A DNA stretch of 64,000 nucleotides from Acidobacteriota bacterium (GCA_035529075.1 DATKXK010000005.1:68981-132980); one strand, 5' to 3'. Counted from the stretch's first letter, positions 14,052 to 57,940 are shown. Numbers and translations are program-made. Notes: generated from the letters alone by a model not told the origin.

Positions 14052-14139
14052 CCGGGACCTGCTGCCGGGCGGCCGGTCGGAGACGCCGTCGACTCGGGCG
14101 GCGATCCGCGGTGCCACGGCAGAGATCAATATGCACAAA

Positions 14140-14163
14140 GGAGACTGAGATGCCTCAGTCTCC
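14140..14163 (-). terminator. Perfect 10-bp stem / 4-nt loop hairpin between convergent genes; probable terminator of the RRM gene
   Basis: ggagactgag-atgc-ctcagtctcc. On the minus strand it is followed by TTTGTGCATATT. It lies 50 nt after the rbp stop and 89 nt after the stop of 11733-14051. Confidence 0.55.
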
Positions 14164-14213
14164 TTCGCAATCAAGCGGCTGCCGTAATCGACAGCAGTGG
14201 ATGCGGATACTCT

Positions 14214-40840: not shown

Positions 40841-43800
40841 ATGGCAATGAAAATTATTCCGAGCCTGCTGCTGTCGGCCGTTGCCTGGCTTTGCGTAGGC
40901 GACCTGCCAACGGCGCAGGAGTCATCCGACGGCAACCTGAAGGCGGCCGAGGCAGGCCGACTTCTCGTCCGGGCTGACTCGCTCAAGGAAAACCGACAAC
41001 TCGATTCCGCCCTTGTCGTGTATCAGTCGGCCGTTGCACAGGCGAGGGAGGCCGGGGCGGAGAATGACTCGACCGTCGTTCAATGTCTGGACGGTCTGGC
41101 GAGCTGCTATTATAAACTGTCGGAATACGAGAGGTGCGATTCGCTGTATCGCCAAGCCTGCTCGATTCGGGTGGTCGTTTTCGGACCGTCCAGCCTCGAA
41201 GTCGCTCGTTCCCTTTTCGACGTGGGCGAGGTTGAGGCAGTACTGGGGCGGTATGAAGAGTCAGTCTCCCTGTTAAACCAGTCTCTGGAACTTCAGGAAC
41301 TTCACCTGGGCCCGTCCCACATCGAACTCGAACCGTGCCTCCGGGAACTCGGCAACGCGCTTTCGATGCTTGGCCGCCTGCCGGAGGCGGAAACGGCGCT
41401 TAAGCGGGCTATTGCCATCGTGGAACAGACAAGGGGGCCTGACGATGTGGCGGTTGTTTCGAATCTTAACTACCTCGGCAACCTCTACGTCAAGCAGTCT
41501 CGTTTTGTCGAAGCAGAACCACTCTTCAAGCGAGCGATCACGCTGGTGGAGAAACAATTGGGCCGTGACCACCCGAAACTGTCCACGGTCCGTTTTTATC
41601 TCGCCGACCTGTACATGTCGCAGCATCGCGATAATGAAGCGGAGCCGCTGCTCAAACAGGCCCTGGCTGTTCAGGAGAGAACGTACGGGCCGGAGGATGA
41701 CCAGGTGGCGCCGTATCTGGCCAGCCTGGCGGTCGTCTACTGGAGGCAGGGACGGTTTGAGGAAGCGGTGCCGCACATGAAACGTGCCCAGCGAATATTC
41801 GAGAGCGTGTATGGTCCCGACCATCCCGTCGTGGCCAGCGTGCTGAACAACCTCGGTACTATTCTGATCGGTCAGGGCAACCTTGCCGAGGCCGAGCGCA
41901 GCTTCGAACGTGCCTTGGAGATTTGGAGCAAAGTGGCTCACGACGTTGCCCGGCGAATTACGACCCTGCACAATCTTGCGGTCGTGTATTTCATGCAGGA
42001 CAAGTACGATCAGGCGGAAGACCTGTGGGCGCAGGTCCTCGCTCACCGCACGGAACTCCTGGGGGCCGATCATCCGGAGGTCGGCATGGTCCGGCTCAGC
42101 CTGGGACGGCTGTTTGAGGAACAGGGCCGGTACGAGGACGCCGAGCGCGAGTTCGGGCAAGCCCGGACGATCTTTGCCGAGCAATGGGGACCCGGCAGCC
42201 TGGGCGTCTCGGCATGCCTGCACGGTCTGAGCGACGTTTATGCGGCCACCGGCCGGTACGCTCAGGCCGAAGAATTCACGGCCGACGCGTTGTCGCTGGA
42301 GAGTAAGGAACTCCGCACCGGTCACCCCTCGCTCAATCGTGGGTTGCATCTGATGGCGGTGATTCATGGATCCCTGGGAGAGTACGAGTCGAGCCGTGCG
42401 AACATGTGCGAATTGCTTGACGCCAGGCACCGCTTTATCGCCCATGTTTTCTCGTACGCCTCGGAAGAGCAAAAGCTCAGATACGTCGATCAGCAGCCGC
42501 TTGTCGATGAGGTGATGCTTTCGCTGGCTCTCATCGATGGTTCCGAAGAGACCCGATCCGCCGCGCTTGAAATGCTGGTGAAAGGCAAAGGTGTCATCAT
42601 TGATGCCATGTCCGCCGAAAATGCGATCATTTCCTGTAAGCCGGGCAGCGAACTGGGGCAGACGGCAGAGCAGTATTCGTTTCTGTGCAAGATGATATCC
42701 ACGCTGGCCATGTCCGGACGCGAGAGTATGGTGTCGCAGCAGACGGCGGACCGGCTGAAGACTCTGTCTCAGGCCAGGGATTCGATCGAAGCGGAGCTCA
42801 GTTTGAGCTGTCTTGAATTCAAGGACGAACTGGACCGGGGTAATTTCTCGCTGCAGAACGTACTCGAGGCGCTGCCCCCGGGCAGCGTCTACCTGGACTA
42901 TGCGCGATTTCGCCCGGTTGACTTCTCGAAGGTCGGCTCATATCAACAAAAACTGGGATCGTCCCGCTATCTCGCCTTTACGCTCGATCACGACGGCCAT
43001 AGCACCCTGCACGACCTCGGCGATGCGAACCAGATCGACAGCTTGGTCAGGAGTTGCCGCCGGCTGATCTACAATGCAGGGGCCGAGTTGCATTCGCCGC
43101 TGGCGGACGTCGCCGAAGAACGGCTTCGAGAAGTCACCGACCGGCTGTATGAAAGGTTGTTTCTCCCGCTGGTCGAGGAGCTCGGTGGCAGGGAAAGCCT
43201 TTTTGTCTCGACTGACGGCCTGCTTACTCTTCTGCCCTTCGAAATCCTGTCGTGTCCGGACCGGTCGTTTCTGATAGAGAACTACCGAATATGCTATCTT
43301 TCGTCAGGACGGGATATCCTTCGATTCGTGGAAGGTCCGGTGTTGGCCGGTGAGGCCGCTGTTTTTGCCGACCCGGATTTTGATAACGCCGGTGTCTCCG
43401 CCGCCAACGTCGCCGAGGTGACGCAGTTCGGCTCGGATTCGGTGTCGGGCACGCAATGGTATGCCGCGCGCGCAGGCGACTGCCCGGCTGTCGGCTTTGA
43501 CCGTCTGGCCCGAAGCCGCTCCGAGGCGGCGTCGATTGTCGGCATCCTCAGGCAAGCGGGGAAGGTGAGGGTCGGCGAATACTACGGTACCGAGGCTCTG
43601 GAAGATGTCTTGAAATCCATGGCTGCTCCGCCGCGCGTTCTGCATCTGGCGACGCACGGCTTTTTTTGCCCGATGTCGGACACGTCCGAATCTCTCGTTG
43701 CCGGCAACCCGTTGCTTCGGTGCGGCCTGGCCTTCGCCGGAGCCAATAGGGCCGGCTTTCCTGCCGGGGACAACGCTCCGGGGGCGGAAGACGGTATCCT

Positions 43801-44149
43801 GACCGGCCTGGAGGCCGCCGGCCTTGATCTGGTCGGAACGGAACTGGTGACCCTGGCCGCGTGCGAAACGGGCCTGGGCGAACTGGTGGATGGAGAGGGC
43901 GTCTTCGGTCTGCGCCGGGCTTTCCAGCGTGCCGGGGCGCAGACTATCGTGATGAGCCTGTGGAAAGTCCCCGATCAGGAAACAGCCGAATTGATGGACG
44001 GTTTCTACCGACGGTGGTGCGGCGGGGCATCAAAGCTGGATGCGCTCCGCGAGTCAGCTCTTGACGTCCTTAACCGGTCACGGACCGAACGAGGACGCAG
44101 TCATCCGTTGCTCTGGGGCGGATTTATCCTGGCCGGCAACCCGTACTGA
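40841..44149 (+). CDS. Exported TPR-repeat / CHAT-domain (caspase-fold) protease
   Basis: N-terminal signal-like MAMKIIPSLLLSAVAWLCVGDLPTAQE. About 10 TPR_12-type units (LNNLGxxYxxQGRYxEAEPLxxRAL). CHAT His/Cys dyad in LHLATHGFF and LAACETGLG. Confidence 0.9.
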   Translation: MAMKIIPSLLLSAVAWLCVGDLPTAQESSDGNLKAAEAGRLLVRADSLKENRQLDSALVVYQSAVAQAREAGAENDSTVVQCLDGLASCYYKLSEYERCDSLYRQACSIRVVVFGPSSLEVARSLFDVGEVEAVLGRYEESVSLLNQSLELQELHLGPSHIELEPCLRELGNALSMLGRLPEAETALKRAIAIVEQTRGPDDVAVVSNLNYLGNLYVKQSRFVEAEPLFKRAITLVEKQLGRDHPKLSTVRFYLADLYMSQHRDNEAEPLLKQALAVQERTYGPEDDQVAPYLASLAVVYWRQGRFEEAVPHMKRAQRIFESVYGPDHPVVASVLNNLGTILIGQGNLAEAERSFERALEIWSKVAHDVARRITTLHNLAVVYFMQDKYDQAEDLWAQVLAHRTELLGADHPEVGMVRLSLGRLFEEQGRYEDAEREFGQARTIFAEQWGPGSLGVSACLHGLSDVYAATGRYAQAEEFTADALSLESKELRTGHPSLNRGLHLMAVIHGSLGEYESSRANMCELLDARHRFIAHVFSYASEEQKLRYVDQQPLVDEVMLSLALIDGSEETRSAALEMLVKGKGVIIDAMSAENAIISCKPGSELGQTAEQYSFLCKMISTLAMSGRESMVSQQTADRLKTLSQARDSIEAELSLSCLEFKDELDRGNFSLQNVLEALPPGSVYLDYARFRPVDFSKVGSYQQKLGSSRYLAFTLDHDGHSTLHDLGDANQIDSLVRSCRRLIYNAGAELHSPLADVAEERLREVTDRLYERLFLPLVEELGGRESLFVSTDGLLTLLPFEILSCPDRSFLIENYRICYLSSGRDILRFVEGPVLAGEAAVFADPDFDNAGVSAANVAEVTQFGSDSVSGTQWYAARAGDCPAVGFDRLARSRSEAASIVGILRQAGKVRVGEYYGTEALEDVLKSMAAPPRVLHLATHGFFCPMSDTSESLVAGNPLLRCGLAFAGANRAGFPAGDNAPGAEDGILTGLEAAGLDLVGTELVTLAACETGLGELVDGEGVFGLRRAFQRAGAQTIVMSLWKVPDQETAELMDGFYRRWCGGASKLDALRESALDVLNRSRTERGRSHPLLWGGFILAGNPY

Positions 44150-44559: not shown

Positions 44560-46860
44560 CTACGGAATTCTGCTGCCTTTCGCAGCAGGCGGCACAAGTG
44601 ATCGCCACGCCGGAAATTCGTCATGGGCGCTGTTGTTGGTCAACTTCCGCCGGTTAGTGCCGTCCACGTTCATTATGTAGATTTCCCCGTCGCCGTCCTG
44701 CCACGATGCAAATACGATCTGCTTGCCGTCGGCAGACCAATCCGGGCAGTTCTCGCCGGCATAAGTGGTCGACAGTTTCTGCAGGCCGCTGCCGTCGGCA
44801 TTGATGATATAGATCCCCCGGAAACCTGCATGATCGGAACCAAAGACAATACGGGTGCCATCCGGCGACCAGTCCGGTTCGAAGCAGACGATATCCATCA
44901 ACTTATGCTCATCGCTGCCATCGGCATCCATTATGAAGGTGCCTTCATTGTCGTTGATGCGGGAGAAGACAATCTGACTACCGTCTGGTGACCATGCGGG
45001 AAAATCCTCGGAGCTGGAAGGGGTATCGGTCAGACGCTGCAGATTGGAGCCGTCTGCATGAATGACATAAATCTCGCCCTGGCCGTCGCGCCATGATGCG
45101 AACACTATGTGCACGCCATCGGGCGACCACTGAGGCCAGAAATCCATAGCGGTATGGGATGTCAGTTGTTGCACGCTGCTGCCGTCGGCATTCATGACGT
45201 AGATATCGGGGTTCCCGCCTCGGGTCGACACGAAGGCAATCCGTGAACCGTCGGGCGACCAGCTCGGCCCGGCGTCGTAGGCCGGATCGTCCGTCAGACG
45301 GCGTACGTGGCTGCCGTCGATCTTCATGAGGTAGATGTCCCCTGCACCGTCCCGTTCTGACGTGAAGGCAATCGTTGAGTCAACTGCGACCGGGCACGGC
45401 GGCAGCGGCTCATAGGTGATAAACAGATACTTGATCATCCGCGTCAGGTCCGAGATATCGACCACGCCGTCGGGCTCTGCCTCCGGGCCGATGTCGGCCT
45501 CGGCCAGGCAACAGATCGGTTGGCGAGAGATGAACAGGAAATCAATGAGGTTGGTCAGATCGCTGACATCGACTGTCTGATCGCTGTATTCGCACTCGCC
45601 CAGTAGCATGACATTGCCTATCGTGCCCTCACAGCAGCAGGCATCGCCGACATTATCGCTGTCGCCGTCCTCCTGAAGCGGGTTGTATACGAAGGGGCAG
45701 TTGTCGACGTCGGCACACAGACCGTCCCCGTCGACGTCGTTGTACGGATCCAGCGGGCAGTCGTCGCAGTCGTTGCCGATCCCATCACCGTCTGTATCCA
45801 CCTGGGCCGGGTTGTAAAGTACAGAACAGTTGTCAACCGGGCACGTGTTCTCGGCGTGACCGGGATCGCCGTAACCGTCGAGATCACCATCCGTACAGGA
45901 TCCGACCACAAAACCCTCGTTGGCATCGCTGGCCCCGGCTCCCGTCTGATAGGCACCGGCCACTACGAAGATCGTGTCTCCGATGACTGCCGCGTTGGTT
46001 CCGTGGCGCGGCGTGAGCATGGGCGTCAGCGGCTCCCAGGTATCGGTGCCGGGATCATACAACTCTACTTCCTCGTAGATGTCCGGAATCTCCCCGCCAA
46101 ACGTATACAGCTTTCCGCCAAGGGCCGCCGTCGAAAACGCGCTGCGCGGCGTCAGCATGTCTGCCAGTGTGTACCAGGTATCGCTGGCCGGCGAGTATGC
46201 TTCAGTCACCGGGACCAGCTCGAGAGACTCTCCCCAGTAGCCGATTCTCCCGCCCACTACGTAGATCAGGGAATCGATTACCGCTACTCCCGGGTGGTGA
46301 CGGGCCGTAGGCATGCTCGTGCCCGGAGACCAGCTATCCATCTGCGGATCATACACCTCGACCGAAGCCAGATCATCACCGTAGGTGTTGTTGCCGCCGA
46401 ATACGTAGATAAGACCATCGTAGGCCACAGCGCTGTGTTCACCCCGAGCCGTGGCCAGGGGGGCTCGAGGCGCCCAGCTATCGGTCGATGGCTCATAAGC
46501 CCAGACGGTGCTCGTAGCGATCCACGGCAGGCCGGCATTGCTGTAGCCACCGATCGCGTAAAGTACCCCGTCCACCACGGCCGTGGCACAGTGATGGCGG
46601 GCCTCGGGCAGCAGGGCCGCTGTCGACCAGGTATTGGCGGCTGGATCATACACATAGACACTGCCACTCACGACCAGGCTGGGGGTATACCCGCCCACAA
46701 CGTAGATGCGCCCGTCGAGCACGGCCGGCAGAACCTCCTGTCTGGCTTCCGGCAGCTCAGGACGTTCGAACCAGTAACCGGGCCCCTGGCCATAGGCAAA
46801 CCCGGCTAAGACATTCAACGCTATCAGGATGACGAGACAGACACGGGAACGGCGTTTCAT
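44560..46860 (-). CDS. Secreted mosaic protein: 6 Kelch repeats + TSP3-type Ca-binding repeats + dockerin-like pair + TolB-like (PD40) beta-propeller
   Basis: Signal peptide MKRRSRVCLVILIALNVLAGFAYG (ATG at 46860 preferred over 46917). Six units of PxARxxxxxAVxDGxIYVxGG. DTDGDGIGNDCDDCPLDPYNDVDGDGLCADVDNCP. DVSDLTNLIDFLF / DISDLTRMIKYLF. Repeated IAFxSxRDGxxDIYVMNADGSxxxxLT. Confidence 0.85.
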   Translation of the reverse strand: MKRRSRVCLVILIALNVLAGFAYGQGPGYWFERPELPEARQEVLPAVLDGRIYVVGGYTPSLVVSGSVYVYDPAANTWSTAALLPEARHHCATAVVDGVLYAIGGYSNAGLPWIATSTVWAYEPSTDSWAPRAPLATARGEHSAVAYDGLIYVFGGNNTYGDDLASVEVYDPQMDSWSPGTSMPTARHHPGVAVIDSLIYVVGGRIGYWGESLELVPVTEAYSPASDTWYTLADMLTPRSAFSTAALGGKLYTFGGEIPDIYEEVELYDPGTDTWEPLTPMLTPRHGTNAAVIGDTIFVVAGAYQTGAGASDANEGFVVGSCTDGDLDGYGDPGHAENTCPVDNCSVLYNPAQVDTDGDGIGNDCDDCPLDPYNDVDGDGLCADVDNCPFVYNPLQEDGDSDNVGDACCCEGTIGNVMLLGECEYSDQTVDVSDLTNLIDFLFISRQPICCLAEADIGPEAEPDGVVDISDLTRMIKYLFITYEPLPPCPVAVDSTIAFTSERDGAGDIYLMKIDGSHVRRLTDDPAYDAGPSWSPDGSRIAFVSTRGGNPDIYVMNADGSSVQQLTSHTAMDFWPQWSPDGVHIVFASWRDGQGEIYVIHADGSNLQRLTDTPSSSEDFPAWSPDGSQIVFSRINDNEGTFIMDADGSDEHKLMDIVCFEPDWSPDGTRIVFGSDHAGFRGIYIINADGSGLQKLSTTYAGENCPDWSADGKQIVFASWQDGDGEIYIMNVDGTNRRKLTNNSAHDEFPAWRSLVPPAAKGSRIP

Positions 46861-47087
46861 GACAATATCTCTTGAGTTAAAGGTCAAACCAGACGACCTC
46901 GCAAAGGACGACGGCAAAACTGGTATTTAATAGACGAATACCAACCGACATTGTTCAGCTATTCCAGCTGCAGCGTGCCTGTCCTGTAACTGCCGCTGCC
47001 TGCCCTAAAATGCTCCTTTTAGCCTTACTCTCTTACGAGCAGGATGAACTTCCCGGGCCCTTCTCTGCGCCCATCAGTTACTGCACT

Positions 47088-47249: not shown

Positions 47250-47415
47250 GATCGGCACTTTCGGGCCGGATGGTTGCAGAGATGTGCCGTGACAGGCCGG
47301 ACTTCGCCTGAGGACTTTCGGGTTCGCCGGGGGCGCATCAAGTGGAAGACGGCACAGCCGGAGCCGCAAGCAGGCTTTCAAACTGCGGGGTCATCCTTTC
47401 GACAAAGCCGTCCGG
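47088..47415. repeat. Direct repeat copy B (~325 bp): truncated CHAT 3' end + spacer + genuine apbE 3' end
   Basis: See copy A. Identical block structure, shifted by 3100 bp. Confidence 0.92.
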
Positions 47416-48414
47416 AGTTCTCACAACGAGTAACGCCGCCAGACCTTTGCCGAGCGCCAGCGCATAGCCGTCCGCCGGGCCCAGGATATTGATCGCCGTC
47501 GCCATCGCATCGGCGTACCAGCAGGAATCATGGATCACCGTCACCGAGGCCAGGCGGTGCCTTATCGGCTGTCCTGTCCTGGGATCGATGAGGTGTGAAT
47601 AGCGGACGCCGCCTGTCTCGAAGTAGTTTCGATAGTCTCCGGACGTTGCCATGGCGCAATTGACAAGAGACGCGACTTTCTGCACACCCGAATCCCCGTC
47701 GGGAGTCTCTATGCCGATCTGCCACACCTGATCCCTGTCGTTGCGACCCCGCGCTTTCATCTCCCCGCCGATCTCGACGAGATAGTCGGACAGGCCTGCC
47801 GAGTCAAGGTACCGGGCGATTTCGTCAACGCCGTAGCCCTTGGCGATTGCCGCCAGATCACAGTAGACCCCCGCGTTGTCCTTTTTCAAGGCAGGCGGAT
47901 CCAGCCGGACGGCGATCCTGGCGTACCCGGTGCGCGCCATGGCCCGGGTGATTTCTTCGGGTGTCGGTAGCCTGCGATCGGTCGTCGGGGGACCGAATCC
48001 CCAGAGGTTCACCAGCGGGCCAACCGTAATATCAAACGTACCACCCGTTTCCCGACTTACCCCCAGAGACTGTTCGATGATGCGTGCCGTGGCGGCCGAC
48101 ACGAGGAACCAGTCGGTTTTCTTCCGGTAGTTGAACCGCGAAATCTCCGAACTCTTCAGGTAGCAGGACATCTGAGCGTTGACGGCCTGCAACAGGCTGT
48201 CGATGCCCCGCCTGGCCAGTTCGATCTGCTCATGCGCAAGGTCGGCTGCGTGGCTGATTTTGACACTGTATACGGTCCCCATGGTTTCGCCGCGGATGAC
48301 AACCGGTCCGGCAGGGGCCGGGTTGTCCGAGCAGCCGGCAAGAAGCCCGGCGGCAACCAGCCATCCGGTCAGCCGCCGCCGCGCCCGGTCGGGATTCATC
48401 GCTCTGAACTTCAT
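47338..48414 (-). CDS. apbE: FAD:protein FMN transferase (flavin transferase ApbE), lipoprotein
   Basis: Lipobox LLAGC. GTFDITVGPLVNLWGFG, DLAAIAKGYGVD, AMATSGDYRNYF, YSHLIDPRTGQP. Confidence 0.92.
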   Translation of the reverse strand: MKFRAMNPDRARRRLTGWLVAAGLLAGCSDNPAPAGPVVIRGETMGTVYSVKISHAADLAHEQIELARRGIDSLLQAVNAQMSCYLKSSEISRFNYRKKTDWFLVSAATARIIEQSLGVSRETGGTFDITVGPLVNLWGFGPPTTDRRLPTPEEITRAMARTGYARIAVRLDPPALKKDNAGVYCDLAAIAKGYGVDEIARYLDSAGLSDYLVEIGGEMKARGRNDRDQVWQIGIETPDGDSGVQKVASLVNCAMATSGDYRNYFETGGVRYSHLIDPRTGQPIRHRLASVTVIHDSCWYADAMATAINILGPADGYALALGKGLAALLVVRTPDGFVERMTPQFESLLAAPAVPSST

Positions 48415-48753: not shown

Positions 48754-49227
48754 ATGCCGGAGAAGAAGAAAGATCAAGCGGACAGTTGGGAGGGCATGTT
48801 CTGGAAACCGCACAAGTATAATGAGCGGATCAACCTGAAATCCGGTTCGTATCTCCGTACCTTCTGCCCTCGCTGCGACGAAGAACTGACTGAAGGTAAC
48901 GTGATCCGGCTTGAGGTGATTAACCTCAACGATGAATCGGGGTGGATTGAGCTGAGCACGTACCTGAACGTTTTTGAGCGGAAGACCGATATCAAGCTGC
49001 CTGAGGATCAAGAAGTCAAGGATCTCCGTTGCCGTCACTGTCACCGTTCATTGGTCGTGGAGGGCCGGCGCTGTGGAACCTGCAATTCCCACGCGGCCGG
49101 CATTGTGGTCGGCGTCTCCAACACCAAGGTGCCTTTCCTGATTTGCACGCGCATAGGTTGTCACTGGCACGCTATTCTGCCCGATGACGAAGACCAGATA
49201 ATTCTCGATGACAGCCGTGAATGGTAA
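48754..49227 (+). CDS. Cytoplasmic 8-Cys (double zinc-ribbon-like) protein of unknown function, first gene of the Rnf-type operon
   Basis: 157 aa with no signal peptide. Cys pairs CPRC, CRHC, CGTC, CTRIGC. Its stop lies 1 nt before the cytochrome start. Confidence 0.6.
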   Translation: MPEKKKDQADSWEGMFWKPHKYNERINLKSGSYLRTFCPRCDEELTEGNVIRLEVINLNDESGWIELSTYLNVFERKTDIKLPEDQEVKDLRCRHCHRSLVVEGRRCGTCNSHAAGIVVGVSNTKVPFLICTRIGCHWHAILPDDEDQIILDDSREW

Positions 49228-49228
49228 T

Positions 49229-49840
49229 ATGCAGGCGCACAGAAAACCCACTTTCCTGATAATTCTTACCGTCGTGGCCGCCGTTGCGGCCGTGGGCGGC
49301 TACTGGGTGGGAGAGGAATCCTCGGACACCAGCCGATTCTTCCTGAGTAGCTCCGGCGGCGACGTGGTGTTCGAGCACGGGGCGCATACGGAAATGGCCG
49401 CGGGGTGTGAAAGCTGCCACCATGATCTCCTGCTGGCCGATTCACGGCAGCCGTGCAGCACTTGTCACGGCGACGACGTTGCGGCGGAGGATTTCGATCA
49501 TGATGACCTCAAGACCATCTCGGCGCACAGTTGCGAGACATGCCACGAGGTCAACGACCAGGCCGAGGCAGGGTCATGTCGCAGTTGCCACCCGTCGGCT
49601 CAGGACGCGGAACCGCAAACGGTGGCCTGCGGGCAGTGCCACGACGGCTACTCGGCCGATTTGATGACCCACGACGAGATGCAGGAAATCGAGGGGCACG
49701 CGTGCGAAGGGTGCCACGTCATTGAGGCGGTCAGTACCGTGTACCACCGTCAGTGTGAGGGCTGTCACCTTGCCGAAAGCCCCGAGAAGTTTGCCACCGA
49801 AACCGGAGAAAGCCAGTGTCAATCGTGTCACCTGAGGTGA
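49229..49840 (+). CDS. Membrane-anchored/exported octahaem c-type cytochrome
   Basis: N-terminal MQAHRKPTFLIILTVVAAVAAVGGYWV. Eight CxxCH motifs in ~150 aa: CESCH, CSTCH, CETCH, CRSCH, CGQCH, CEGCH, CEGCH, CQSCH. ATG at 49229 is preferred to the track start at 49208, which overlaps the previous gene. Confidence 0.88.
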   Translation: MQAHRKPTFLIILTVVAAVAAVGGYWVGEESSDTSRFFLSSSGGDVVFEHGAHTEMAAGCESCHHDLLLADSRQPCSTCHGDDVAAEDFDHDDLKTISAHSCETCHEVNDQAEAGSCRSCHPSAQDAEPQTVACGQCHDGYSADLMTHDEMQEIEGHACEGCHVIEAVSTVYHRQCEGCHLAESPEKFATETGESQCQSCHLR

Positions 49841-49856: not shown

Positions 49857-51167
49857 TTGCCCATGAATTCCATACGGACACTTTTCAGGACCCTTGGCCA
49901 CATCGGGGATTGCGCCTCACATGAGGAGAAGATTTCCGCAATCGCCGACCCGCCGTACGTCTGCATCCCGCTGGAGTATCCGGGCCAGATCCTGTACAAG
50001 CCCCTGGTGCAGGCGGGTGATACGGTGCGCAGGAACCAGATCATCGGCCGGTCCGGGCAGGGTAATTGTGTCCACGCGTCGGTAAGCGGAACAGTGAAGG
50101 AGATCAGGCCCGTCTGGACTGCGCGAAGCTACAACGTGCCCTCGGTCGTGATTGAGCGAAACGGCGGCGCCCCGCTGTCGGTGGGCGAAGTCTTTGAGCA
50201 GTACGGCGTGCGGTTTGCCTCGGCGTCCCGGATACAGAAAATGAAGGCCCTGGGGGTTGTCTCGCCGTGGACTCTGCCGGGCAAGTTCCACCGTGAAGAG
50301 GAGGTGGAGGAGTTCCCCGAGGTCAGACAGATCATTATCAAGGGAAAAAACGAAGAACCCAGTATTTTCACGTTCGAACTGCTGCTTGAGCAGGAATCTG
50401 AGAAAGTGACTCGGGGGATTCAGCAACTGACCAGCATCGCCCCCAATGCTCTGATCTGGCTGACCGTGCCGAGGCGCCTGGCTGCCTGGGCGCGTGAGAC
50501 TTTCGGCGACTCCGTCAAAGTTGCGCCCCTTGGGGACGGTTACAAGGACCGTCTGGAGCGGCTGCTTGTCCCGCGCCTGACCGGGATCACGATAGCCAAC
50601 ACCGCCCCGTACCGGCAGGAAGGGATTGCCGTCATATCGGTCGAGTACCTCCTGGCCATGGTCGACGCGCTTGAAGGCCGCAGCCCGTTCACGCACAAGC
50701 ACCTGACTGTCGCCGGGCATAACGTCTCCAGACCCGTTACGGTCAAGTTCCCTATAGGCACACCCATCCGAACACTCCTGGAGAGCCAGCAGCTTCACGA
50801 CAAGTCGTTCGCACGCCTGCTGGTCGGGGGGCCGATGAAGGGAATCGCGCAGTTTAGTGACGAAACTCCCCTCACCAAGTCCTGTCACGGTCTTTACGTG
50901 ATATCAGCGGATCAATTGCCGCTGGAGGTGAACCTTACGTGCATAAACTGCGGCCGGTGTACGCGGGCGTGCCCGCTTAACCTGCAGGTGCACCTGATCG
51001 GCCGCTACGTCGAATATAACCTGCTGCTTGAGGCCAGGGGATTTCACCCGGAAGCCTGCAATGAGTGCGGGTTGTGCGCCTATGTCTGTCCGGCTCACAG
51101 GCCGCTGGTACAACTTATCACTATGTGTAATCAGTACGATGAGCACGCCGATGGTCAGAACGTATGA
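49857..51167 (+). CDS. rnfC: RnfC-like subunit retaining two [4Fe-4S] motifs but lacking the Gly-rich NADH/FMN-binding motifs
   Basis: RnfC_N pattern (VCIPLEYPGQILYKPLVQAGDTVRRNQIIG..VHASVSGTVKEI), LLVGGPMKG, CINCGRCTRACP and CNECGLCAYVCP. Where RsxC/RnfC has G(L/V)GGAGFPT and INxAECEPY, this protein has VVSPWTLPGKF and IKGKNEEPS. Confidence 0.82.
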   Translation: MPMNSIRTLFRTLGHIGDCASHEEKISAIADPPYVCIPLEYPGQILYKPLVQAGDTVRRNQIIGRSGQGNCVHASVSGTVKEIRPVWTARSYNVPSVVIERNGGAPLSVGEVFEQYGVRFASASRIQKMKALGVVSPWTLPGKFHREEEVEEFPEVRQIIIKGKNEEPSIFTFELLLEQESEKVTRGIQQLTSIAPNALIWLTVPRRLAAWARETFGDSVKVAPLGDGYKDRLERLLVPRLTGITIANTAPYRQEGIAVISVEYLLAMVDALEGRSPFTHKHLTVAGHNVSRPVTVKFPIGTPIRTLLESQQLHDKSFARLLVGGPMKGIAQFSDETPLTKSCHGLYVISADQLPLEVNLTCINCGRCTRACPLNLQVHLIGRYVEYNLLLEARGFHPEACNECGLCAYVCPAHRPLVQLITMCNQYDEHADGQNV

Positions 51168-52125
51168 GAAACTGAACGTAGCTTCCAGCCCTCACTGGCG
51201 GGATGGAAGCGCCCTGGATTTGACTTACAAGCTGTGGCTGCTGGCCCTGGCGCCGGCCATGATCGTGAGCCTGCTGATGTTCGGTTGGCAGGCGTTACGG
51301 GTTCTCGGCCTGGCCGTGGCCTGTTCCGTATTCCTGGATGCGCTCGTCAACCGGATAAAGCCCTCCAAGGACTTTACGACCAATTGGAGCAGCGTTACGT
51401 TCGGCGTGATCCTCGCCCTGATGATGCCGTATGACGCCGCCTGGTGGCTGATTCTGGTGGGTTGCCTGATCATGATTGTGGTGGGCAAAAAGCTTTTCGG
51501 CGGCGTGGGAGCGTACCCCGTGCACCCGGTCCTGCTCAGTCTGGCCATGCTGCATGTATCCTGGCCGCACCGCTTCGACTTCACCGCTTCCATGGTTTCA
51601 CTGGATCTCGGTGTCAAGATGGTCGAGCCGATGCGTCTCGTCAAAACGCTGGGCGCGGGCGCCGAGGCTGCATATCGCTGGCAGGATCTCCTGCTGGGCA
51701 AACAGGTGGCCGGCATCGGTAGCGGGCTCGTCCTGTACCTGCTTATAGGCGGCCTGCTCCTGATTCTTTTCCGCCAGATTCCGTGGCACATCCCGGTCGC
51801 CTTTATTGTCGGTAACCTGGTGATGGGGGAGGTTCTGCACCTGGCGGATCCGGTTCAGTTCGCCACACCGCTCTTCTACCTTCTGTCCGGCGGCACTGTT
51901 TTCGCCGCTTTTTTCCTGGCGACGGAGTACACGACTTCGCCCGTGAACCCGGTTCCGATGTTGTTATACGGGTTCCTGGGTGGGGCTTTGCTGATAGTAA
52001 TTCGCGCGTTTTCGAACTACACTGACGGCGTGGTGTTTACGATCCTGCTGATCAACCTGTGCAATCCGCTTCTCGATCGCATCACGCCCAGGGTATACGG
52101 CATAGAGGCGGCTCAGCATGCGTGA
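51139..52125 (+). CDS. rnfD: RnfD/NqrB-family membrane subunit (divergent at the FMN-attachment site)
   Basis: VASSPHW near the N-terminus, KKLFGGVGAYPVHPVLLSLAML, YLLSGGTVFAAFFLATE, NYTDGVVFTILLINLCNPLLD. ATG at 51139 is chosen; the track start at 51028 lies deep inside rnfC. Confidence 0.86.
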   Translation: MSTPMVRTYEKLNVASSPHWRDGSALDLTYKLWLLALAPAMIVSLLMFGWQALRVLGLAVACSVFLDALVNRIKPSKDFTTNWSSVTFGVILALMMPYDAAWWLILVGCLIMIVVGKKLFGGVGAYPVHPVLLSLAMLHVSWPHRFDFTASMVSLDLGVKMVEPMRLVKTLGAGAEAAYRWQDLLLGKQVAGIGSGLVLYLLIGGLLLILFRQIPWHIPVAFIVGNLVMGEVLHLADPVQFATPLFYLLSGGTVFAAFFLATEYTTSPVNPVPMLLYGFLGGALLIVIRAFSNYTDGVVFTILLINLCNPLLDRITPRVYGIEAAQHA

Positions 52126-52717
52126 AGTAATCAGGCTAGTCGTGGTGCTCACCGTCATCTGCGGTGTCTCGGCGGGTGCTCTGACGCTTGTGCGGCAGTC
52201 ACTGGGTTCTCGCATTGAGCAGCAGAGCGATTTTTATGTTCGCGGCCCGGCGCTGGAGCGCCTGTTCGGCCAACCATCGGCGGAGCTGCTTGACAAGAAG
52301 GTCAGCTTTACCTCCGACGGGCGCACGTATCCGGTTTTTTATACGCGTGACGGCGAGCAGATCACAGGGCTGGCCGTCGAGGCACCCGGCCCGGGAGGGT
52401 ACGGCGGCGATGTCGTCGTCATGATTGGTGTGGACCTGCGTGCCGGGCAGATGGTAGGTATGGAGATAATCCAGCATAATGAGACGCCCGGCGTCGGCTC
52501 GCAGGTGGAAAGGCCGGCCTTCCGCAAACAGTGGAGCGGCCTGTCCGTCTCCGAGCCCGTGCAGCTGACTGCGCAAGGGGGCAAGATTGACGCCATCAGC
52601 GGTGCCACGTACTCATCGAAGGCGGTGATCAACGGAACGAACGCCATTGTCGAATTGCTGGGCCGTCACCGTGACGAGATTATGGCTTCAATACGGACGA
52701 AAGAGGGTCAATCGTAG
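52118..52717 (+). CDS. rnfG: RnfG subunit (periplasmic FMN_bind domain)
   Basis: N-terminal anchor VVVLTVICGVSAGAL. HNETPGVG. Flavinylation motif DAISGATYSSKAV (SGAT at 52598-52609). Confidence 0.9.
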   Translation: MREVIRLVVVLTVICGVSAGALTLVRQSLGSRIEQQSDFYVRGPALERLFGQPSAELLDKKVSFTSDGRTYPVFYTRDGEQITGLAVEAPGPGGYGGDVVVMIGVDLRAGQMVGMEIIQHNETPGVGSQVERPAFRKQWSGLSVSEPVQLTAQGGKIDAISGATYSSKAVINGTNAIVELLGRHRDEIMASIRTKEGQS

Positions 52718-52746
52718 ACTGCCCTGACGGGGTGTGAGAAGCGAAT

Positions 52747-53358
52747 ATGAGTTTACGGAAGGTACTGTTTCACGGGTTCTGGAAAGACCTGCCGCCGTTT
52801 CGTCTGGTCCTGGGTCTGTGCCCGTCTCTGGCCGTGACTTCATCGGCCGAGAACGGTCTGGGTATGGGACTGGCGGCGACGTTCGTGCTCGTCTTTTCCA
52901 ATCTGTTTATCTCCGTGCTGCGCAAAATGATCCCGGACAAGGTACGCATTGCCAGTTACATCGTGGTTATCGCCACCCTGACTGTTCTCGTGGAGATGGC
53001 GATGAAGGCGTACTTCTTCCCGCTTTCGCAGCAGTTGGGAATTTACATTCCCCTGATCGTCGTTAACTGCATTATTCTCGGCCGGGCGGAAGCGTACGCC
53101 TCGAAGAACCCGCCTCACCTCTCGATTGTTGATGGCATCAGCATCGGGTTGGGTTTCACGATTTCGCTGACGGTGGTCGGATCGATCCGTGAGATTCTGG
53201 GTGCCGGGCAGTGGTTTGGCACGTACGTTCTCTGGGACAGCTACGAGCCGTTTGAGTTCATGATCAAGGCCCCGGGTGCCTTTATCTGCCTGGGCGTGCT
53301 GTTGGGTCTGATGAACGCATACAGCCGCATGCGCGGTGAAACCTTCATACAGTCGTAG
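52747..53358 (+). CDS. rnfE: RnfE subunit
   Basis: LVLGLCPSLAVT, GLGMGLAATFVL, LGIYIPLIVVNCIILGRAEAYA. Confidence 0.9.
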   Translation: MSLRKVLFHGFWKDLPPFRLVLGLCPSLAVTSSAENGLGMGLAATFVLVFSNLFISVLRKMIPDKVRIASYIVVIATLTVLVEMAMKAYFFPLSQQLGIYIPLIVVNCIILGRAEAYASKNPPHLSIVDGISIGLGFTISLTVVGSIREILGAGQWFGTYVLWDSYEPFEFMIKAPGAFICLGVLLGLMNAYSRMRGETFIQS

Positions 53359-53367
53359 GAGGTACTG

Positions 53368-53943
53368 ATGGACCTGTTGTTGCTCGCGATCAGTGCGATC
53401 TTTGTGAACAATATCCTCCTGGCCCAGTACCTCGGCAACTGCCCCTTCTGCGGCGTCTCCAAGAAGCTGAACACGTCCATCGGGATGGGGGTGGCGGTGA
53501 TCTTTGTGGTGGCGCTGGCCTCGGTGTTCACGTGGCTGGTTTACTACTACGTTTTGAAACCGTACGATATGGAGTTCATCCAAACCCTCGTCTTCATTCT
53601 GATTATCGCGTCGCTCGTTCAGTTTGTGGAGATCTTTCTTAAGAAGCAGAGTAAGGCGCTGTACAACGCGTTGGGGATCTACCTGCCGCTGATCACGACG
53701 AACTGCGCCGTCATGGGCATCGCACTGCTTAATATCAAGCACGAATTCAACTTCATCGAGATGGTGATATTCTCAGTTGCCAGTTCCGCAGGTTTTGCCC
53801 TGGCGATCATACTGTTCGCCGGGCTGCGGGAGCGGCTGCTGGTCTCACCGGTCCCTCGGGCCATGCAGGGGACAGCCGTGGCGCTTCTGACGGCCGGTAT
53901 CATGTCGCTGGCGTTCTTGGGCTTTTACGGTATGGTTCAGTGA
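53368..53943 (+). CDS. rnfA: RnfA subunit
   Basis: NNILLAQYLGNCPFCGVS, LGIYLPLITTNCAVMG, GFALAIILFAGLRERL. Confidence 0.9.
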   Translation: MDLLLLAISAIFVNNILLAQYLGNCPFCGVSKKLNTSIGMGVAVIFVVALASVFTWLVYYYVLKPYDMEFIQTLVFILIIASLVQFVEIFLKKQSKALYNALGIYLPLITTNCAVMGIALLNIKHEFNFIEMVIFSVASSAGFALAIILFAGLRERLLVSPVPRAMQGTAVALLTAGIMSLAFLGFYGMVQ

Positions 53944-53958
53944 GATAGAAAGTAGGGT

Positions 53959-56058
53959 ATGGGCATGCTGGAGTCAGTTGTACTCCTTGCGGGAATTGGA
54001 TTTGTAGCGGCGATTGGTCTGGGCATTGCCGGGATAATCTTCTACGTCAAGGAAGATCCTCGCATAAAGGGCGTTCAGAACATCCTCCCCGGCGCCAACT
54101 GCGGAGGTTGCGGGTTTGCGGGTTGCGCGGCTTGCGCCGAGGCCATTGTCAGGGGGGAAGCTGAGGCAAACGCCTGCGTCGTGGGCCAGACGGAGGTCGC
54201 CACGGAAGTCGCGGATTATCTTGGTCTGTCTCCGGTCGACTCGGAACCGCAGGTGGCCAATCCCGACTGCCAGGGCGGGCTCCGCGCCTCCAGAAAGTAC
54301 GACTACCTGGGCTTCGACGACTGCCGGGCCGCCATGTTGTACTACCACGGGCCGGTGGCGTGTGAGCATGGCTGCATGGGCTTCGGAACCTGCATCAAGG
54401 CGTGCAAGTTCAACGCCATTATGATGGGCGAGAACAACCTGCCACGGTTCAATCCGGAACTGTGCGTGGGCTGCGGCCAGTGCGTGGCGGCCTGCCCCAA
54501 GGGCATCATCTCACTCATCTCCGCCAAGGCCAAGATCCTGCACTGGAATCAGTACACCGAGTGCCTGTCTCCCTGCCGACAGAAGTGCCCGGCTCAGGTC
54601 AACATCCCGAAGTATATCCAGCATATCAGACGCGGTGAATACGCTCAGGCCCTGCTGACAATCAAGGAAAGCAACCCTATGCCGTTAAGCATCGGGCGGG
54701 TCTGCCCCGAACCGTGCGCCCTGGCCTGCCGGCGTACCATCAATGACGAACCCGTGGCTATCAACTACCTCAAGCGGTTTGTCGCCGACTGGGAGATGCA
54801 CTCCGGCCGTCGTCTCCGCATTCCCGTGGCGGCCGGCACGGGCAAGAAGGTGGCCGTGATCGGGGGCGGCCCGGGCGGTCTCTCGGCCGCGTTCTATCTC
54901 AAGCGCCTCGGCCATGAGGTGACAATCTTCGAAAAAAAGCCCCAACTCGGAGGCATGTTGCGTTACGGCATTCCCGAGTACCGGCTGCCCAAGAAGATTC
55001 TCGACTGGGAGATCGAAGGTATCCTCCAGTTGGGAATCACCGCCACTGCCAACGTGGAGTTCGGCAAGGACTTCACGATTGATTTCCTGCGCGCCGAGGG
55101 GTATGACGCCGTTTTCATCGCGGTCGGGGCCTGGAACGAGTCTGAACTGAAGGTCGAGGGCCGCGATCTGAAGGGTGTGGTCGGCGGCATCGGGTTTCTC
55201 GAGCGGTTCCACACCGGTGAAGAGGTTGAGATCGGCAATCACGTGGTTGTGATAGGCGGTGGCAATACGGCTATTGACGCTGCGCGCAGTTCCCTGCGGC
55301 TGGGTGCACAGACCGTCACCATCGTGTATCGCCGGTCGAGGGACGAAATGCCCGCCAATCCTGCCGAGATCATTGCCGCTGAAGAAGAGAACATTCAGTT
55401 CCAGTTCCTGAGTGCTCCCAACCGTGTGCTTGGTGAGGACGGCCGGGTAGCGGGCCTGGAAGTCCTGAAAATGCGCCTGGGCGAGCCCGATCCCAGCGGC
55501 CGGCGAAGGCCCGTCCCGATTGAGGGGTCAGAAGAAGTTGTCCAGTGCGATATGATCGTCGAGGCCGTCGGCCAGTACCCGGATCTGGACTGCCTCAAGC
55601 AAGCGGGATCGCCCAGTCTCCAGGTCACCAAGTGGAACACGATTGACGCGCAGGAAGCGACCCTGCAGACGGACGTTCCCTACATCTTTACCGGCGGTGA
55701 CTGCTTCACCGGTCCGGGTCTCGTGGTGGAGGCCATAGGCGCCGGGCGCTATGCCGCGCGTTCCATCCACTACTACATGATGGATGACGAGATTCGGCCG
55801 ATTCGGGATCGTCAGCGCGAGATCATTCCGGACTCGCTGCACAAGTCAATTATCGGTGTTGCAGCCTTGCCCCGCGTCCATGAACCGATAGTCACACTTG
55901 AAGACCGGCTGGGAACATTCAAGGAGGTGGAGGGGACCATCGACGAGGAGGATGCCCGGTACGAAGCCACGCGGTGCCTGAACTGCGGCATCTTTTGTTA
56001 CGATCACGACCAGGAGGTCGAGCGACTGGCCCAACTGGAGGCGGCCGAAACGACTTAG
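53959..56058 (+). CDS. rnfB: RnfB fused to a GltD-like (glutamate synthase small-subunit-type) NAD(P)H/FAD oxidoreductase module
   Basis: Residues 1-190 are the TM anchor, LPGANCGGCGFAGCAACAEAI (RnfB-type cluster), CEHGCMGFGTCIKAC and CVGCGQCVAACP. Residues ~195-640 carry SPCRQKCPAQVNIPKYI...GRVCPEPCALACRR, KKVAVIGGGPGGLSAAFYL..EKKPQLGGMLRYGIPEYRLPK, VVVIGGGNTAIDAARS and IFTGGDC. 699 aa, against ~190-330 aa for ordinary RnfB. Confidence 0.88.
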   Translation: MGMLESVVLLAGIGFVAAIGLGIAGIIFYVKEDPRIKGVQNILPGANCGGCGFAGCAACAEAIVRGEAEANACVVGQTEVATEVADYLGLSPVDSEPQVANPDCQGGLRASRKYDYLGFDDCRAAMLYYHGPVACEHGCMGFGTCIKACKFNAIMMGENNLPRFNPELCVGCGQCVAACPKGIISLISAKAKILHWNQYTECLSPCRQKCPAQVNIPKYIQHIRRGEYAQALLTIKESNPMPLSIGRVCPEPCALACRRTINDEPVAINYLKRFVADWEMHSGRRLRIPVAAGTGKKVAVIGGGPGGLSAAFYLKRLGHEVTIFEKKPQLGGMLRYGIPEYRLPKKILDWEIEGILQLGITATANVEFGKDFTIDFLRAEGYDAVFIAVGAWNESELKVEGRDLKGVVGGIGFLERFHTGEEVEIGNHVVVIGGGNTAIDAARSSLRLGAQTVTIVYRRSRDEMPANPAEIIAAEEENIQFQFLSAPNRVLGEDGRVAGLEVLKMRLGEPDPSGRRRPVPIEGSEEVVQCDMIVEAVGQYPDLDCLKQAGSPSLQVTKWNTIDAQEATLQTDVPYIFTGGDCFTGPGLVVEAIGAGRYAARSIHYYMMDDEIRPIRDRQREIIPDSLHKSIIGVAALPRVHEPIVTLEDRLGTFKEVEGTIDEEDARYEATRCLNCGIFCYDHDQEVERLAQLEAAETT

Positions 56059-56245: not shown

Positions 56246-57940
56246 ATGGATACGAATCTACCCGGGATCATAGTTACGGGCGCGTCCGGTTTCATCGGGC
56301 GGCACTTTCTGGAGGCGGTGGCCGGTAAATTCCGTCTCTTCTGCCTGGCGCGCCGTTCGCAAAAGGAAGCGGGTATTCCCAGGGATGACAACATCCGCTG
56401 GACCCAGGTCGACATCGCCAAATGGGACACTCTCAGAGAGGTCGTGCAATGCGTGAAGACCAACGGGGGTGCGGATTTCGTCCTGCACCTGGCCGGCTAC
56501 TATGACTTCAGCAACGCCGACAACCCGGAATACGAACGGACCAACGTCAACGGCACGCGCAACGTCCTGAAGCTGGCAAAACAGATCGGCACGCGCCGTT
56601 TCATCTTCGCCAGTTCCCTGGCGGCCTGTACGTTTCCGCGTGACGGCGGGGTGGTCAACGAAGAGAGTGCGCCAGACGCCACTTTTCCGTATGCGTCCAG
56701 CAAACGGCTGGGCGAAGAGATGATGCAGGAGTACTCCGAGTGGTTTCCGTGCACGACCGTCCGTTTGGCCGCAATCTACAGCGACTGGTGCGAGTATCCT
56801 CCGGTATACGTGTTTCTCGGTACCTGGCTGTCCGGCCGCTGGAATTCGCGCATCCTCGGCGGCCGGGGAATGTCCGCCGTGACGTATCTTCACATCCAGG
56901 ACCTGATCAGGTTCTTTCTAAAGATAATCGACCAGACCGATCGCTTGCCGCGGATGTGCACCCTGGTGGCAAGCCCGAACGGATTCACGACTCATCACGA
57001 GCTTTTCAAAACGGCCACGCGGTATTTCTACGGCCGGGACATCCGGCCGATTCGCATGCCTAAGGTCCTGGCCACGCCGGGCATGGTCTTGCGCCATGCC
57101 ATAGGGAAGCTCTTCGGCAGGCCGCCGTTCGAGCGCCTGTGGATGGTGGCGTACATTGACAAGAAACTGAACGTCGACGCCTCAGGAACGCACGCCGACC
57201 TCGGCTGGCAGCCGACCGCCCGGCACGGCATTCTCCGGCGCCTGCTGTTCCTGATGGAAAACATGAAGAATCACCCCGACGGCTGGCATTTGCGGAACGA
57301 AGCCGTGCTGCGGCGGGTGACCGAGCGGCCGAATCTCACCATTTACGAACTGCTTATCGAGTCCCGCGAGGCGCTCATTGATGAAATGCTCAAGTTCATC
57401 CTGGCCCCCGCCAACGCCGGGCGGCTCAACCGCTACCAGAGGATGGATAAGGACCTGCTCAAGTGGTACGTCACCCTCGTGTACCAGCTGGTGGCTACGG
57501 TCGTGCGAACCCGCGACCGGACGCTGATGCGCAATTACGCCGAGGTCATAGCGTATCGCCGGTTCGTGGAAGGATTCGAGGTTCGCGAGGTTTGTGACTT
57601 TCTCATGTCTATAGGTGACATGATGCGTGAGGCACTGGAGCCACGGTCCGAGCTCAGGGACATGCCGCAACGGGTGTACGACCACATCACCATGACTTTC
57701 CAATTGGCGGTGGACGAGATCGAGGACTCTTACGAGTTCCTGGCTGCCCAGACACCTGAATACCTGCAGCGGCTCAGGGAAGTGCCGTTACCGACACACA
57801 GCGGCGATCTCGAGCGCATTGTCCATCAACTGGAGGACATCTGCCAGGACATGTTCGAGGACCGGCTGAGCACGGAGGCCCGCAAGCTCCGGGGCGCGCC
57901 CCTCTCCCGCAGTGACACCCCGCATTATCATGATCTGTAG
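56246..57940 (+). CDS. NAD-dependent epimerase/dehydratase (extended SDR) fused to a ~230-aa helical C-terminal domain of unknown function
   Basis: IIVTGASGFIGRHF (GxxGxxG), YASSK (YxxxK). Residues ~330-564 are helical and not SDR-like. Confidence 0.8.
   Translation: MDTNLPGIIVTGASGFIGRHFLEAVAGKFRLFCLARRSQKEAGIPRDDNIRWTQVDIAKWDTLREVVQCVKTNGGADFVLHLAGYYDFSNADNPEYERTNVNGTRNVLKLAKQIGTRRFIFASSLAACTFPRDGGVVNEESAPDATFPYASSKRLGEEMMQEYSEWFPCTTVRLAAIYSDWCEYPPVYVFLGTWLSGRWNSRILGGRGMSAVTYLHIQDLIRFFLKIIDQTDRLPRMCTLVASPNGFTTHHELFKTATRYFYGRDIRPIRMPKVLATPGMVLRHAIGKLFGRPPFERLWMVAYIDKKLNVDASGTHADLGWQPTARHGILRRLLFLMENMKNHPDGWHLRNEAVLRRVTERPNLTIYELLIESREALIDEMLKFILAPANAGRLNRYQRMDKDLLKWYVTLVYQLVATVVRTRDRTLMRNYAEVIAYRRFVEGFEVREVCDFLMSIGDMMREALEPRSELRDMPQRVYDHITMTFQLAVDEIEDSYEFLAAQTPEYLQRLREVPLPTHSGDLERIVHQLEDICQDMFEDRLSTEARKLRGAPLSRSDTPHYHDL

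Follow-up and report, generated by a model that had tools for sequence, protein, structure and literature searches.

Absence of a recognisable RnfD flavinylation site in a lineage of Rnf complexes with a large RnfB subunit

An Rnf complex whose RnfB is large and whose RnfC is devoid of the NADH domain was reported for Desulfobacula toluolica Tol2, and in Desulfococcus multivorans, whose proteome contains the subunits, the type received the name Rnf2 (PMC5109826). A 2025 study assigned Rnf2 to the core genome of the Desulfobacteraceae as an abundant and constitutive complex (PMC11887813); its supplement describes the differences in RnfB and RnfC, calls all other subunits 'very similar', and proposes that electrons exit or enter at RnfG by way of a cytochrome. 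A survey of the Desulfovibrionaceae records rnf operons with a cytochrome and a 'FAD-dependent oxidoreductase' (FAD, flavin adenine dinucleotide) in place of rnfB (PMC11434368). Loss of the threonine that carries covalent flavin mononucleotide (FMN) on RnfD and NqrB has been described for two-subunit Nqr/Rnf-like complexes only (PMC10979944), in which Huang et al. (2024) found NqrB/RnfD-like subunits without Thr and proposed visits of the RnfG-like FMN to the flavin site of the RnfD-like subunit. Here we describe an rnf operon from an Acidobacteriota bacterium, contained in a 64-kb stretch of DNA (DATKXK010000005.1:68981-132980; hereafter the window, from the start of which all coordinates are counted), whose RnfD lacks this threonine, together with the lineage to which it belongs. 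The open-access papers and bioRxiv preprints that we searched contain no statement on loss of the RnfD flavinylation site in a six-subunit Rnf with a large RnfB, and because the published Rnf2 accounts call RnfD 'very similar', loss of the site across the Rnf2 kind appears to be unreported.

The window rnfD gene (51139-52125, plus strand; PF03116, E 1e-76) encodes a protein of 328 amino acids (aa) that HMMER aligns with the solved chains 9eri_D (A. woodii), 8ahx_D and 7zc6_D (C. tetanomorphum) at E-values of 6.5e-44 to 9.6e-38, and with NqrB at 1e-12 to 1e-13 only. Because these alignments pair its segment LDLGVKMVEPMRLVK with 'LD-GVTTATPLAILK' of C. tetanomorphum and LTDTVTTATPLALLK of A. woodii, Glu163 falls at the position of the FMN-bearing Thr in the solved RnfD and NqrB structures (T236 of V. 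cholerae NqrB), a placement repeated in the HMMER alignments to all three structures and in several MAFFT alignments. The Glu codon is GAG at 51625-51627, as a preliminary description of this DNA had read it, and the aligned RnfD and NqrB sequences place no Ser/Thr flavinylation motif anywhere in the protein. That description had also claimed that RnfD holds no other GAT-type motif, and a regular-expression (regex) scan agrees: neither [ST]G[AS][TS] nor even GA[TS] occurs in RnfD or in any operon protein save RnfG.

The change is not confined to one residue, as the whole recognition motif of the flavin transferase ApbE is gone, with D...(S/T)GAT-P replaced by L...KMVE-P. Two residues of that motif, Asp157 and Ala162, are conserved in 86% and 93% of Thr-type RnfD proteins and lost in the Thr-less set, from which Arg135 and Glu195, also conserved in Thr-type RnfD, are missing as well; the following Pro-Leu is kept. 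These four residues are defined at the sequence level as conserved in one set and lost in the other. Since the entire motif has been lost, the window RnfD very probably carries no covalently bound FMN. Its overall fold seems unaffected: an AlphaFold 2 (AF2) model has a mean confidence (pLDDT) of 82, a pTM of 0.82 and a TM-score of 0.79-0.85 against solved RnfD, and in it Glu163 is predicted to cap the helix 164-178. The protein scores 198.3 bits with TIGR01946 in NCBIfam, below the cut-off of 207.05.

Among the window RnfD and its 120 closest homologues (51-100% identity), 118 have Glu and three have Asp at this site, and these proteins are annotated from several phyla, including Zixibacteria, Calditrichaceae, Desulfocapsaceae, Desulfopila and an 'Acidobacteriota' metagenome-assembled genome. 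When representatives are taken at 50% identity, the nearest relatives are likewise without Thr (with E, D, Y, F, L, W or P) and the more distant ones are canonical (S/T)xATP proteins; across the Thr-less subclades as a whole the residue may be E, D, Y, H, F, L, P or W. In a broad sample of Thr-type RnfD representatives, 100 of 100 have the Thr itself, as do all 36 canonical loci described below. In a rough, midpoint-rooted neighbour-joining tree of 132 full-length RnfD sequences, the 26 that lack both Thr and Ser at this position all belong to one clade of 33 leaves, and none is found among the other 99. Loss of the Thr is a lineage trait rather than a one-off event, and marks a widespread branch of Rnf pumps; hosts of the window's own clade include Zixibacteria, Calditrichota, Marinimicrobia, Fibrobacteraceae, Desulfobulbales and Geopsychrobacteraceae genomes. 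We note that the database protein identical to the window RnfD (P0001) bears the NCBI label 'Acidobacteriota bacterium', and that the nearest RnfD relatives with a name come from Zixibacteria, Calditrichota and other members of the Fibrobacteres-Chlorobi-Bacteroidetes group or Desulfobacterota; the explanation is either a wrong label or horizontal transfer of the operon. Some RnfD homologues are far longer than 330 aa (P0127, 481 aa; P0134, 507 aa; P0177, 624 aa; P0230, 775 aa), which suggests fusions with other domains or subunits.

Comparison of gene neighbourhoods places this loss in context. We scored 87 loci with the window proteins, 80 of them fetched with an RnfD profile and seven by exact-protein look-up; L001-L045 and L047, minus L012, are Thr-less, and L046 and L048-L082 are canonical. 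L012 (CP070792.1, 'Gemmatimonadota bacterium chromosome') had looked like an orphan RnfD and was rejected, since it is a scaffold of ~1.4-kb pieces joined by 100-N runs in which gene context is meaningless and the taxonomic attribution of the RnfD doubtful. At the Thr-less loci RnfB is a fusion of ~690-730 aa in 35 cases, one more locus was scored for the GltD-like part only, and ten, mostly short contigs, have no RnfB-type open reading frame (ORF); canonical RnfB is short, mostly ~190 aa, with no fusion among 31. The Thr-less RnfC proteins are without the GxGGA glycine-rich loop and the ECEP motif, both of which are present wherever a canonical rnfC is readable. Five further members of the Thr-less clade (L083-L087) show the same RnfC and RnfD pattern, and the large fusion is found in all four of these with an RnfB gene on the contig, the cytochrome discussed below being less constant among them. 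The window RnfD groups with the RnfD proteins of large-RnfB operons, and every clade member with RnfB on its contig has the large fusion. The absence of the Thr is thus more closely correlated with the RnfB fusion and with a missing RnfC FMN site than with the cytochrome.

The window RnfC (49857-51167, plus strand) illustrates this pattern. The barrel domain at its N-terminus and two [4Fe-4S] motifs remain, but it has lost the FMN/NADH motifs: Pfam finds no match to PF01512, the FMN/NADH-binding domain, and in alignments to 7zc6_C and 9eri_C the canonical GIVGMGGATFPTHVKL and 'NAAECEPYLT' become GVVSPWTLPGKFHREE and 'KGKNEEPSIFT'. Against 7zc6_C in particular, the glycine-rich FMN loop GIVGMGGATFPT corresponds to GVVSPWTLPGKF, and 'NAAECEPY' to 'KGKNEEPS'. 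The protein reaches 189.1 bits with TIGR01945, below the cut-off of 245.95. In RnfC of L083 and L087 a Complex1_51K Pfam match remains though the GxGG and ECEP motifs are absent, and the domain fold there seems to persist past the loss of the cofactor-binding residues.

The opposite change is seen in RnfB (53959-56058, plus strand; PF04060, Fer4, PF14691 and PF07992), a 699-aa protein in which residues 1 to ~195 are RnfB and ~197-685 form an NfnB/GltD-like NAD(P)H-FAD-2x[4Fe-4S] module, its C-terminal ~500 residues comprising Fer4_20 and Pyr_redox_2 domains. In a PDB search residues 5-192 match 9eri_B, and residues ~183-686 match 9bov_A, 9n5u_A, 8oh5_C, 4ylf_B and 5jca_L (E 1e-88 to 1e-133), the module being nearer to NADPH-binding NfnB-type modules than to glutamate synthase small subunits. 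The stretch 'IVYRRSRDE' after the second Rossmann motif may resemble NADPH-type GltD/NfnB sites. The whole protein scores 522.7 bits with NF009410, above the cut-off of 516. Between RnfB and RnfG lie RnfE (52747-53358; PF02508, E 6e-65) and RnfA (53368-53943; PF02508, E 1e-55), both on the plus strand, in which Cys25 and Cys108, and Cys25 and Cys113, respectively, are putative [2Fe-2S] ligands; the four Cys, which in solved complexes hold the intramembrane [2Fe-2S] cluster, show no variation at either Thr-less or canonical loci. At the level of ligand residues, the path from RnfB through RnfA/E to RnfG is intact.

RnfG (52118-52717, plus strand; PF04205, E 6e-18), the periplasmic FMN-binding subunit, keeps its own site. 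The preliminary description had pointed to an SGAT there, and the tetrapeptide (AGC GGT GCC ACG, 52598-52609, with Thr164) aligns with the AITGAT/AITGST flavinylation sites of 7zc6_G and 9eri_G. A six-frame scan of the 64 kb for D..[ST]GA[TS] returns a single match, RnfG KIDAISGATYSSK (DAISGAT). Thr164 is the sole recognisable ApbE substrate in the operon and in the window, so that the single client for ApbE expected from the preliminary description is what these scans recover. The best NCBIfam model for RnfG is NF045876, of the RnfG_DVU2794 type, and its score of 97.9 is below the cut-off of 102. SGAT, TGAT or SGAS is retained in the RnfG of readable loci with one exception, L032, which has GGAT. 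SGAS replaces SGAT in a Desulfobulbales/Geopsychrobacteraceae subclade (L001, L006, L008-L010 and L013), and the flavinylated residue there would therefore be Ser. The transferase gene apbE (47338-48414, minus strand; PF02424, E 8e-86), divergent from the operon, encodes a protein with a lipobox-like LLAGC of lipoprotein type, by eye, at its N-terminus. The SGAT had been described as lying next to apbE; the gene does flank the operon, standing at its head, but it is ~2.7 kb from rnfD and not beside rnfG, and it is adjacent to the operon in some relatives only (L002, L015, L045 and L085).

Immediately upstream of rnfC is a gene for a 210-aa octahaem c3/c7-type cytochrome c (49208-49840, plus strand; PF02085, E 4e-10). 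It has an N-terminal hydrophobic anchor or signal, is presumed to be the periplasmic partner of RnfG, and keeps all eight of its CXXCH motifs in comparison across loci. A multihaem ORF with 4-13 CXXCH lies directly upstream of rnfC at 35 of the 36 Thr-less loci with enough upstream sequence, and no cytochrome gene was seen at the canonical rnf loci. Some Thr-less large-RnfB operons are followed by a gene of the RseC/MucC family (L084, 11996-12469; L087, 12060-12557), and L087 also has downstream a 536-aa protein with 22 CXXCH and a faint MtrC/MtrF-like match (12647-14257); the RseC/MucC gene and the 22-haem protein hint at a link to extracellular electron transfer. The cytochrome gene start is overlapped by 20 nt by a 157-aa ORF (48754-49227, plus strand), whose cytoplasmic-looking product has seven Cys (CPxC...CxxC...C...C....C) and a C-terminal 'S.EW', all of them invariant. 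The protein belongs to no Pfam or NCBIfam family at E<=0.001, with only sub-threshold double-zinc-ribbon/DUF6487 matches at E 0.002-0.03. A homologue sits in the same place at 12 of 12 informative loci of the window's clade and is absent at Desulfobacterales-type loci; the protein could be an extra subunit or an assembly factor.

A second flavin site of RnfD is altered as well. Residues N200, N203 and D346 of V. cholerae NqrB are absolutely conserved, and double mutants lose riboflavin (PMC9293633); in alignment to 7xk3_B these map to Tyr126 and His129 (codons within 51514-51525) and Glu263 (51925-51927) of the window RnfD. All 36 canonical loci have N, N and D at these positions, and loci of the window's clade have Tyr (12 of 13) at the first, His or Gln at the second and Asp or Glu at the third. 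With the riboflavin-site residues replaced too, both flavin sites of RnfD are, to judge from these alignments, remodelled in the window's clade, and the change at this second site may be specific to it.

These observations suggest a complex whose pyridine-nucleotide site now lies at the RnfB end, having left the RnfC end. In one direction or the other, electrons would run between NAD(P)H, the RnfB fusion with its FAD and Fe-S chain, the [2Fe-2S] cluster within the membrane at RnfA/E, the periplasmic covalent FMN of RnfG and the multihaem cytochrome, in an NQR-like and essentially one-way membrane crossing (NQR, NADH:quinone oxidoreductase) that would replace the classical U-shaped return via RnfD-FMN to NAD+ on RnfC. 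The RnfD-RnfC arm would be retained, probably as an ion path or scaffold; because the RnfC Fe-S clusters are conserved, it would probably also act as a secondary redox port with non-covalent cofactors and a cytoplasmic partner, most likely ferredoxin. In a bolder reading of the whole lineage, to which we give a probability of about 0.35, it would be an ion-motive oxidoreductase between NAD(P)H, possibly also ferredoxin, and cytochrome c, with RnfG-FMN as its sole ApbE-dependent cofactor and periplasmic exit. The Rnf scaffold would then have acquired a one-way exit independently and in an NQR-like manner, with an extra Cys-rich subunit in the window's clade. The preliminary description had electrons leaving at RnfG toward the cytochrome, an idea also published for Desulfobacteraceae Rnf2 and for M. 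acetivorans Rnf, and the distribution of multihaem genes, nearly constant at Thr-less loci and nil at canonical ones, fits it. A precedent is the engineered mutant NqrB-T236Y, with the same change that Desulfobacterales-type RnfD carries naturally; it loses FMN and electron flow is disrupted, while the complex keeps its architecture (PMC12901251).

Several points weigh against this view of the complex. At 44 of 44 Thr-less loci RnfC retains every one of the eight Cys that make up its two [4Fe-4S] clusters, which a purely linear path from NAD(P)H to the cytochrome leaves unexplained and which indicates continued selection on the RnfD-RnfC arm as a redox element. Conservation is strong in the loop around Glu163, with M(V/I)EP(L/M)R nearly invariant in the window's clade, and suggests function rather than an empty site. 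In Desulfobacterales-type Thr-less loci the two riboflavin-site Asn are kept (33/33 and 27/33) and the third position is mostly Glu. A cytochrome gene is missing in and around two Thr-less operons, L085 and L045, and the cytochromes of L084, one of type c and one of type b, are encoded on the opposite strand only, 2.5 kb upstream; these three weaken the presence of a cytochrome as an explanation for loss of the Thr. The tree is rough, the canonical loci are mostly Proteobacteria, and the localisation of the cytochrome and of ApbE was judged by eye. The interpretation in the preliminary description is thus partly supported: the site is indeed absent from RnfD, but a broken relay from RnfG to RnfD goes beyond the sequence, and the conserved RnfC clusters argue against a dead RnfD-RnfC arm. 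That description had also passed over the lost NADH/FMN site of RnfC, the new NAD(P)H module on RnfB and the spread of all these changes through the family.

The same RnfC clusters and Glu163 loop are what lend interest to a relay that is intact but non-covalent, in which RnfD would hold riboflavin or FMN in the old pocket, with the carboxylate of Glu163 (Tyr in the Desulfobacterales type) replacing the phospho-threonine linkage, and would pass electrons from RnfG through the RnfC Fe-S clusters to a new cytoplasmic partner such as ferredoxin or the 157-aa protein, so linking NAD(P)H, ferredoxin and cytochrome c pools. The riboflavin-site Asn of the Desulfobacterales type would also be accounted for. 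We nevertheless regard this as somewhat doubtful, as the site residue varies by subclade, unlike one conserved flavin-anchoring chemistry, Asp157, Ala162, Arg135 and Glu195 have gone along with the Thr, the riboflavin Asn are replaced by Tyr and His/Gln in the window's clade, and NqrB-T236Y does not hold FMN. A rather less probable arrangement is that the covalent FMN of RnfG swings into the vacated RnfD pocket and serves both positions, as Huang et al. (2024) propose from AlphaFold models of two-subunit complexes; nearly all loci do have an RnfG with its motif, but the two-subunit architecture, a PF00175 fusion, is different, and the window encodes RnfA/E and RnfB too, so that its RnfG has to come within reach of the RnfA/E cluster as well.

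Finally, the absence of the Thr might be an artefact of misalignment, sequencing error or a decaying pseudogene, or RnfD might be flavinylated at a non-canonical Ser/Thr, for which Thr149, Ser151, Ser154 and Thr170 lie near the site. This is by far the least credible of the alternatives. The HMMER alignments to three structures and the MAFFT alignments agree on the position, and the G-A context required by ApbE is missing around each of the nearby Ser and Thr; a one-off mutation or pseudogene is ruled out by the conserved substitution in 120 homologues from several phyla and by an intact ORF that folds well as RnfD, and an alternative flavinylation site by the regex and six-frame scans, which find none.

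The genes of the operon are closely packed, with apbE followed by eight plus-strand genes between 47.3 and 56.1 kb (ORF calls and Pfam). Directly downstream of rnfB, at 56246-57940 on the plus strand, is a 564-aa protein with an N-terminal NAD-dependent epimerase/short-chain dehydrogenase domain and a long uncharacterised C-terminal half; its close homologues (E 1e-222 to 1e-256) flank the operon in L002, L003, L004 and L011, and it was not seen at Desulfobulbales loci. Upstream of apbE are two genes that look unrelated to the operon, one for a 1102-aa protein rich in tetratricopeptide repeats with a C-terminal part that is CHAT-protease-like by eye (40841-44149, plus strand), and one for a 785-aa protein with apparent Kelch-like and TolB-like beta-propeller repeats, also by eye (44560-46917, minus strand).

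The wider interest lies in a large natural clade of Rnf complexes without the RnfD FMN site and without the RnfC FMN site. Metabolic models that score such operons as ferredoxin:NAD+ Rnf probably assign the wrong reaction in sulfate reducers, Zixibacteria, Calditrichota and others. The clade offers natural 'T236Y-like' and 'T236E-like' variants for asking which cofactors ion pumping needs, and a concrete candidate for the route by which anaerobes connect NAD(P)H or ferredoxin in the cytoplasm with cytochrome pools in the periplasm. Hosts in culture include Desulfopila aestuarii DSM 18488, the source of locus L013, and strains of Desulfosarcina, Desulfococcus and Desulfobacula. The lineage, core and highly expressed in marine Desulfobacteraceae, is represented among our loci in Zixibacteria, Calditrichota, Marinimicrobia, Fibrobacteraceae and Desulfobulbales as well.

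Among known systems, the classical Rnf complexes (A. woodii 9ERI, C. tetanomorphum 7ZC6, A. vinelandii 8AHX and that of V. cholerae) share with the window the six homologous subunits, all together here at 49857-56058 by Pfam in the same order, RnfC-D-G-E-A-B, as well as the RnfD fold, the RnfG flavinylation site, the RnfA/E cluster Cys and the two RnfC [4Fe-4S] motifs. They differ in having the RnfD Thr in (S/T)xAT-P and the RnfC motifs GxGGAxFP and NxxECEP (PF01512), both of which the window lacks, whereas the window has the NAD(P)H fusion on RnfB and the cytochrome c, and its RnfC, RnfD and RnfG fall below the NCBIfam cut-offs. Na+-NQR resembles the window in carrying the pyridine-nucleotide module on the RnfB/NqrF side, in an RnfC/NqrA homologue that binds no NAD(H) or FMN, and in a final acceptor other than NAD+, a logic that looks convergent. 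It keeps, however, an FMN bound covalently at T236 of NqrB, with which, together with riboflavin, it reduces quinone, its NqrA is without Fe-S clusters, and its NqrF is of the ferredoxin-NADP+ reductase (FNR)-like rather than the NfnB/GltD-like kind. The window operon is not itself an NQR: it has no NqrF-type gene, its scores with the models for NqrB and NqrA lie far under the respective cut-offs, and its RnfC keeps the Fe-S motifs.

The two-subunit Nqr/Rnf-like complexes (Meheust 2021; Huang 2024) likewise have an NqrB/RnfD-like subunit without Thr and an NqrC/RnfG-like subunit that keeps it, and the one-way flow from NAD(P)H to an extracytosolic acceptor proposed for them is akin to that considered here. 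Their RnfD-like protein is fused to an NqrF-type PF00175 domain and occurs mainly in Actinobacteria and the candidate phyla radiation, in contrast to the stand-alone 328-aa RnfD, six-gene operon and RnfB-borne NAD(P)H module of the window. The Methanosarcina acetivorans Rnf with MmcA, which makes no use of NAD(P), also has a multihaem cytochrome c at the head of its operon and an RnfG-FMN proposed as donor to the cytochrome, but it is archaeal and has a normal-size RnfB fed by ferredoxin.

The closest match is Rnf2. It has an RnfB of ~700 aa with a pyridine-nucleotide-binding flavoprotein module, a c3-type cytochrome in the cluster and the order rnfCDGEAB, and the loci of Desulfosarcina, Desulfonema and other Desulfobacterales that we fetched are also without the RnfD Thr. 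Given its own ~700-aa RnfB, its RnfC without an NADH/FMN signature, its c3-type cytochrome and the grouping of its RnfD in the rough tree, the window operon, taken together with the mechanism inferred for it, is probably, though by no means surely, a large-RnfB complex of the Rnf2 or Desulfobacula Tol2 type and not a classical ferredoxin:NAD+ Rnf. It departs from Rnf2 in an RnfD identity of only ~35-42%, in the residue at the flavinylation site (mostly Tyr there, Glu in the window's clade), in the number of haems (4-5 there, eight here), in the extra gene for the 157-aa Cys-rich protein, and in the riboflavin-site Asn, which have given way to Tyr and His/Gln. Within the Rnf2 kind, the novelties of the window operon are its Glu type, the octahaem cytochrome, the extra Cys-rich gene, and hosts that are not sulfate reducers.

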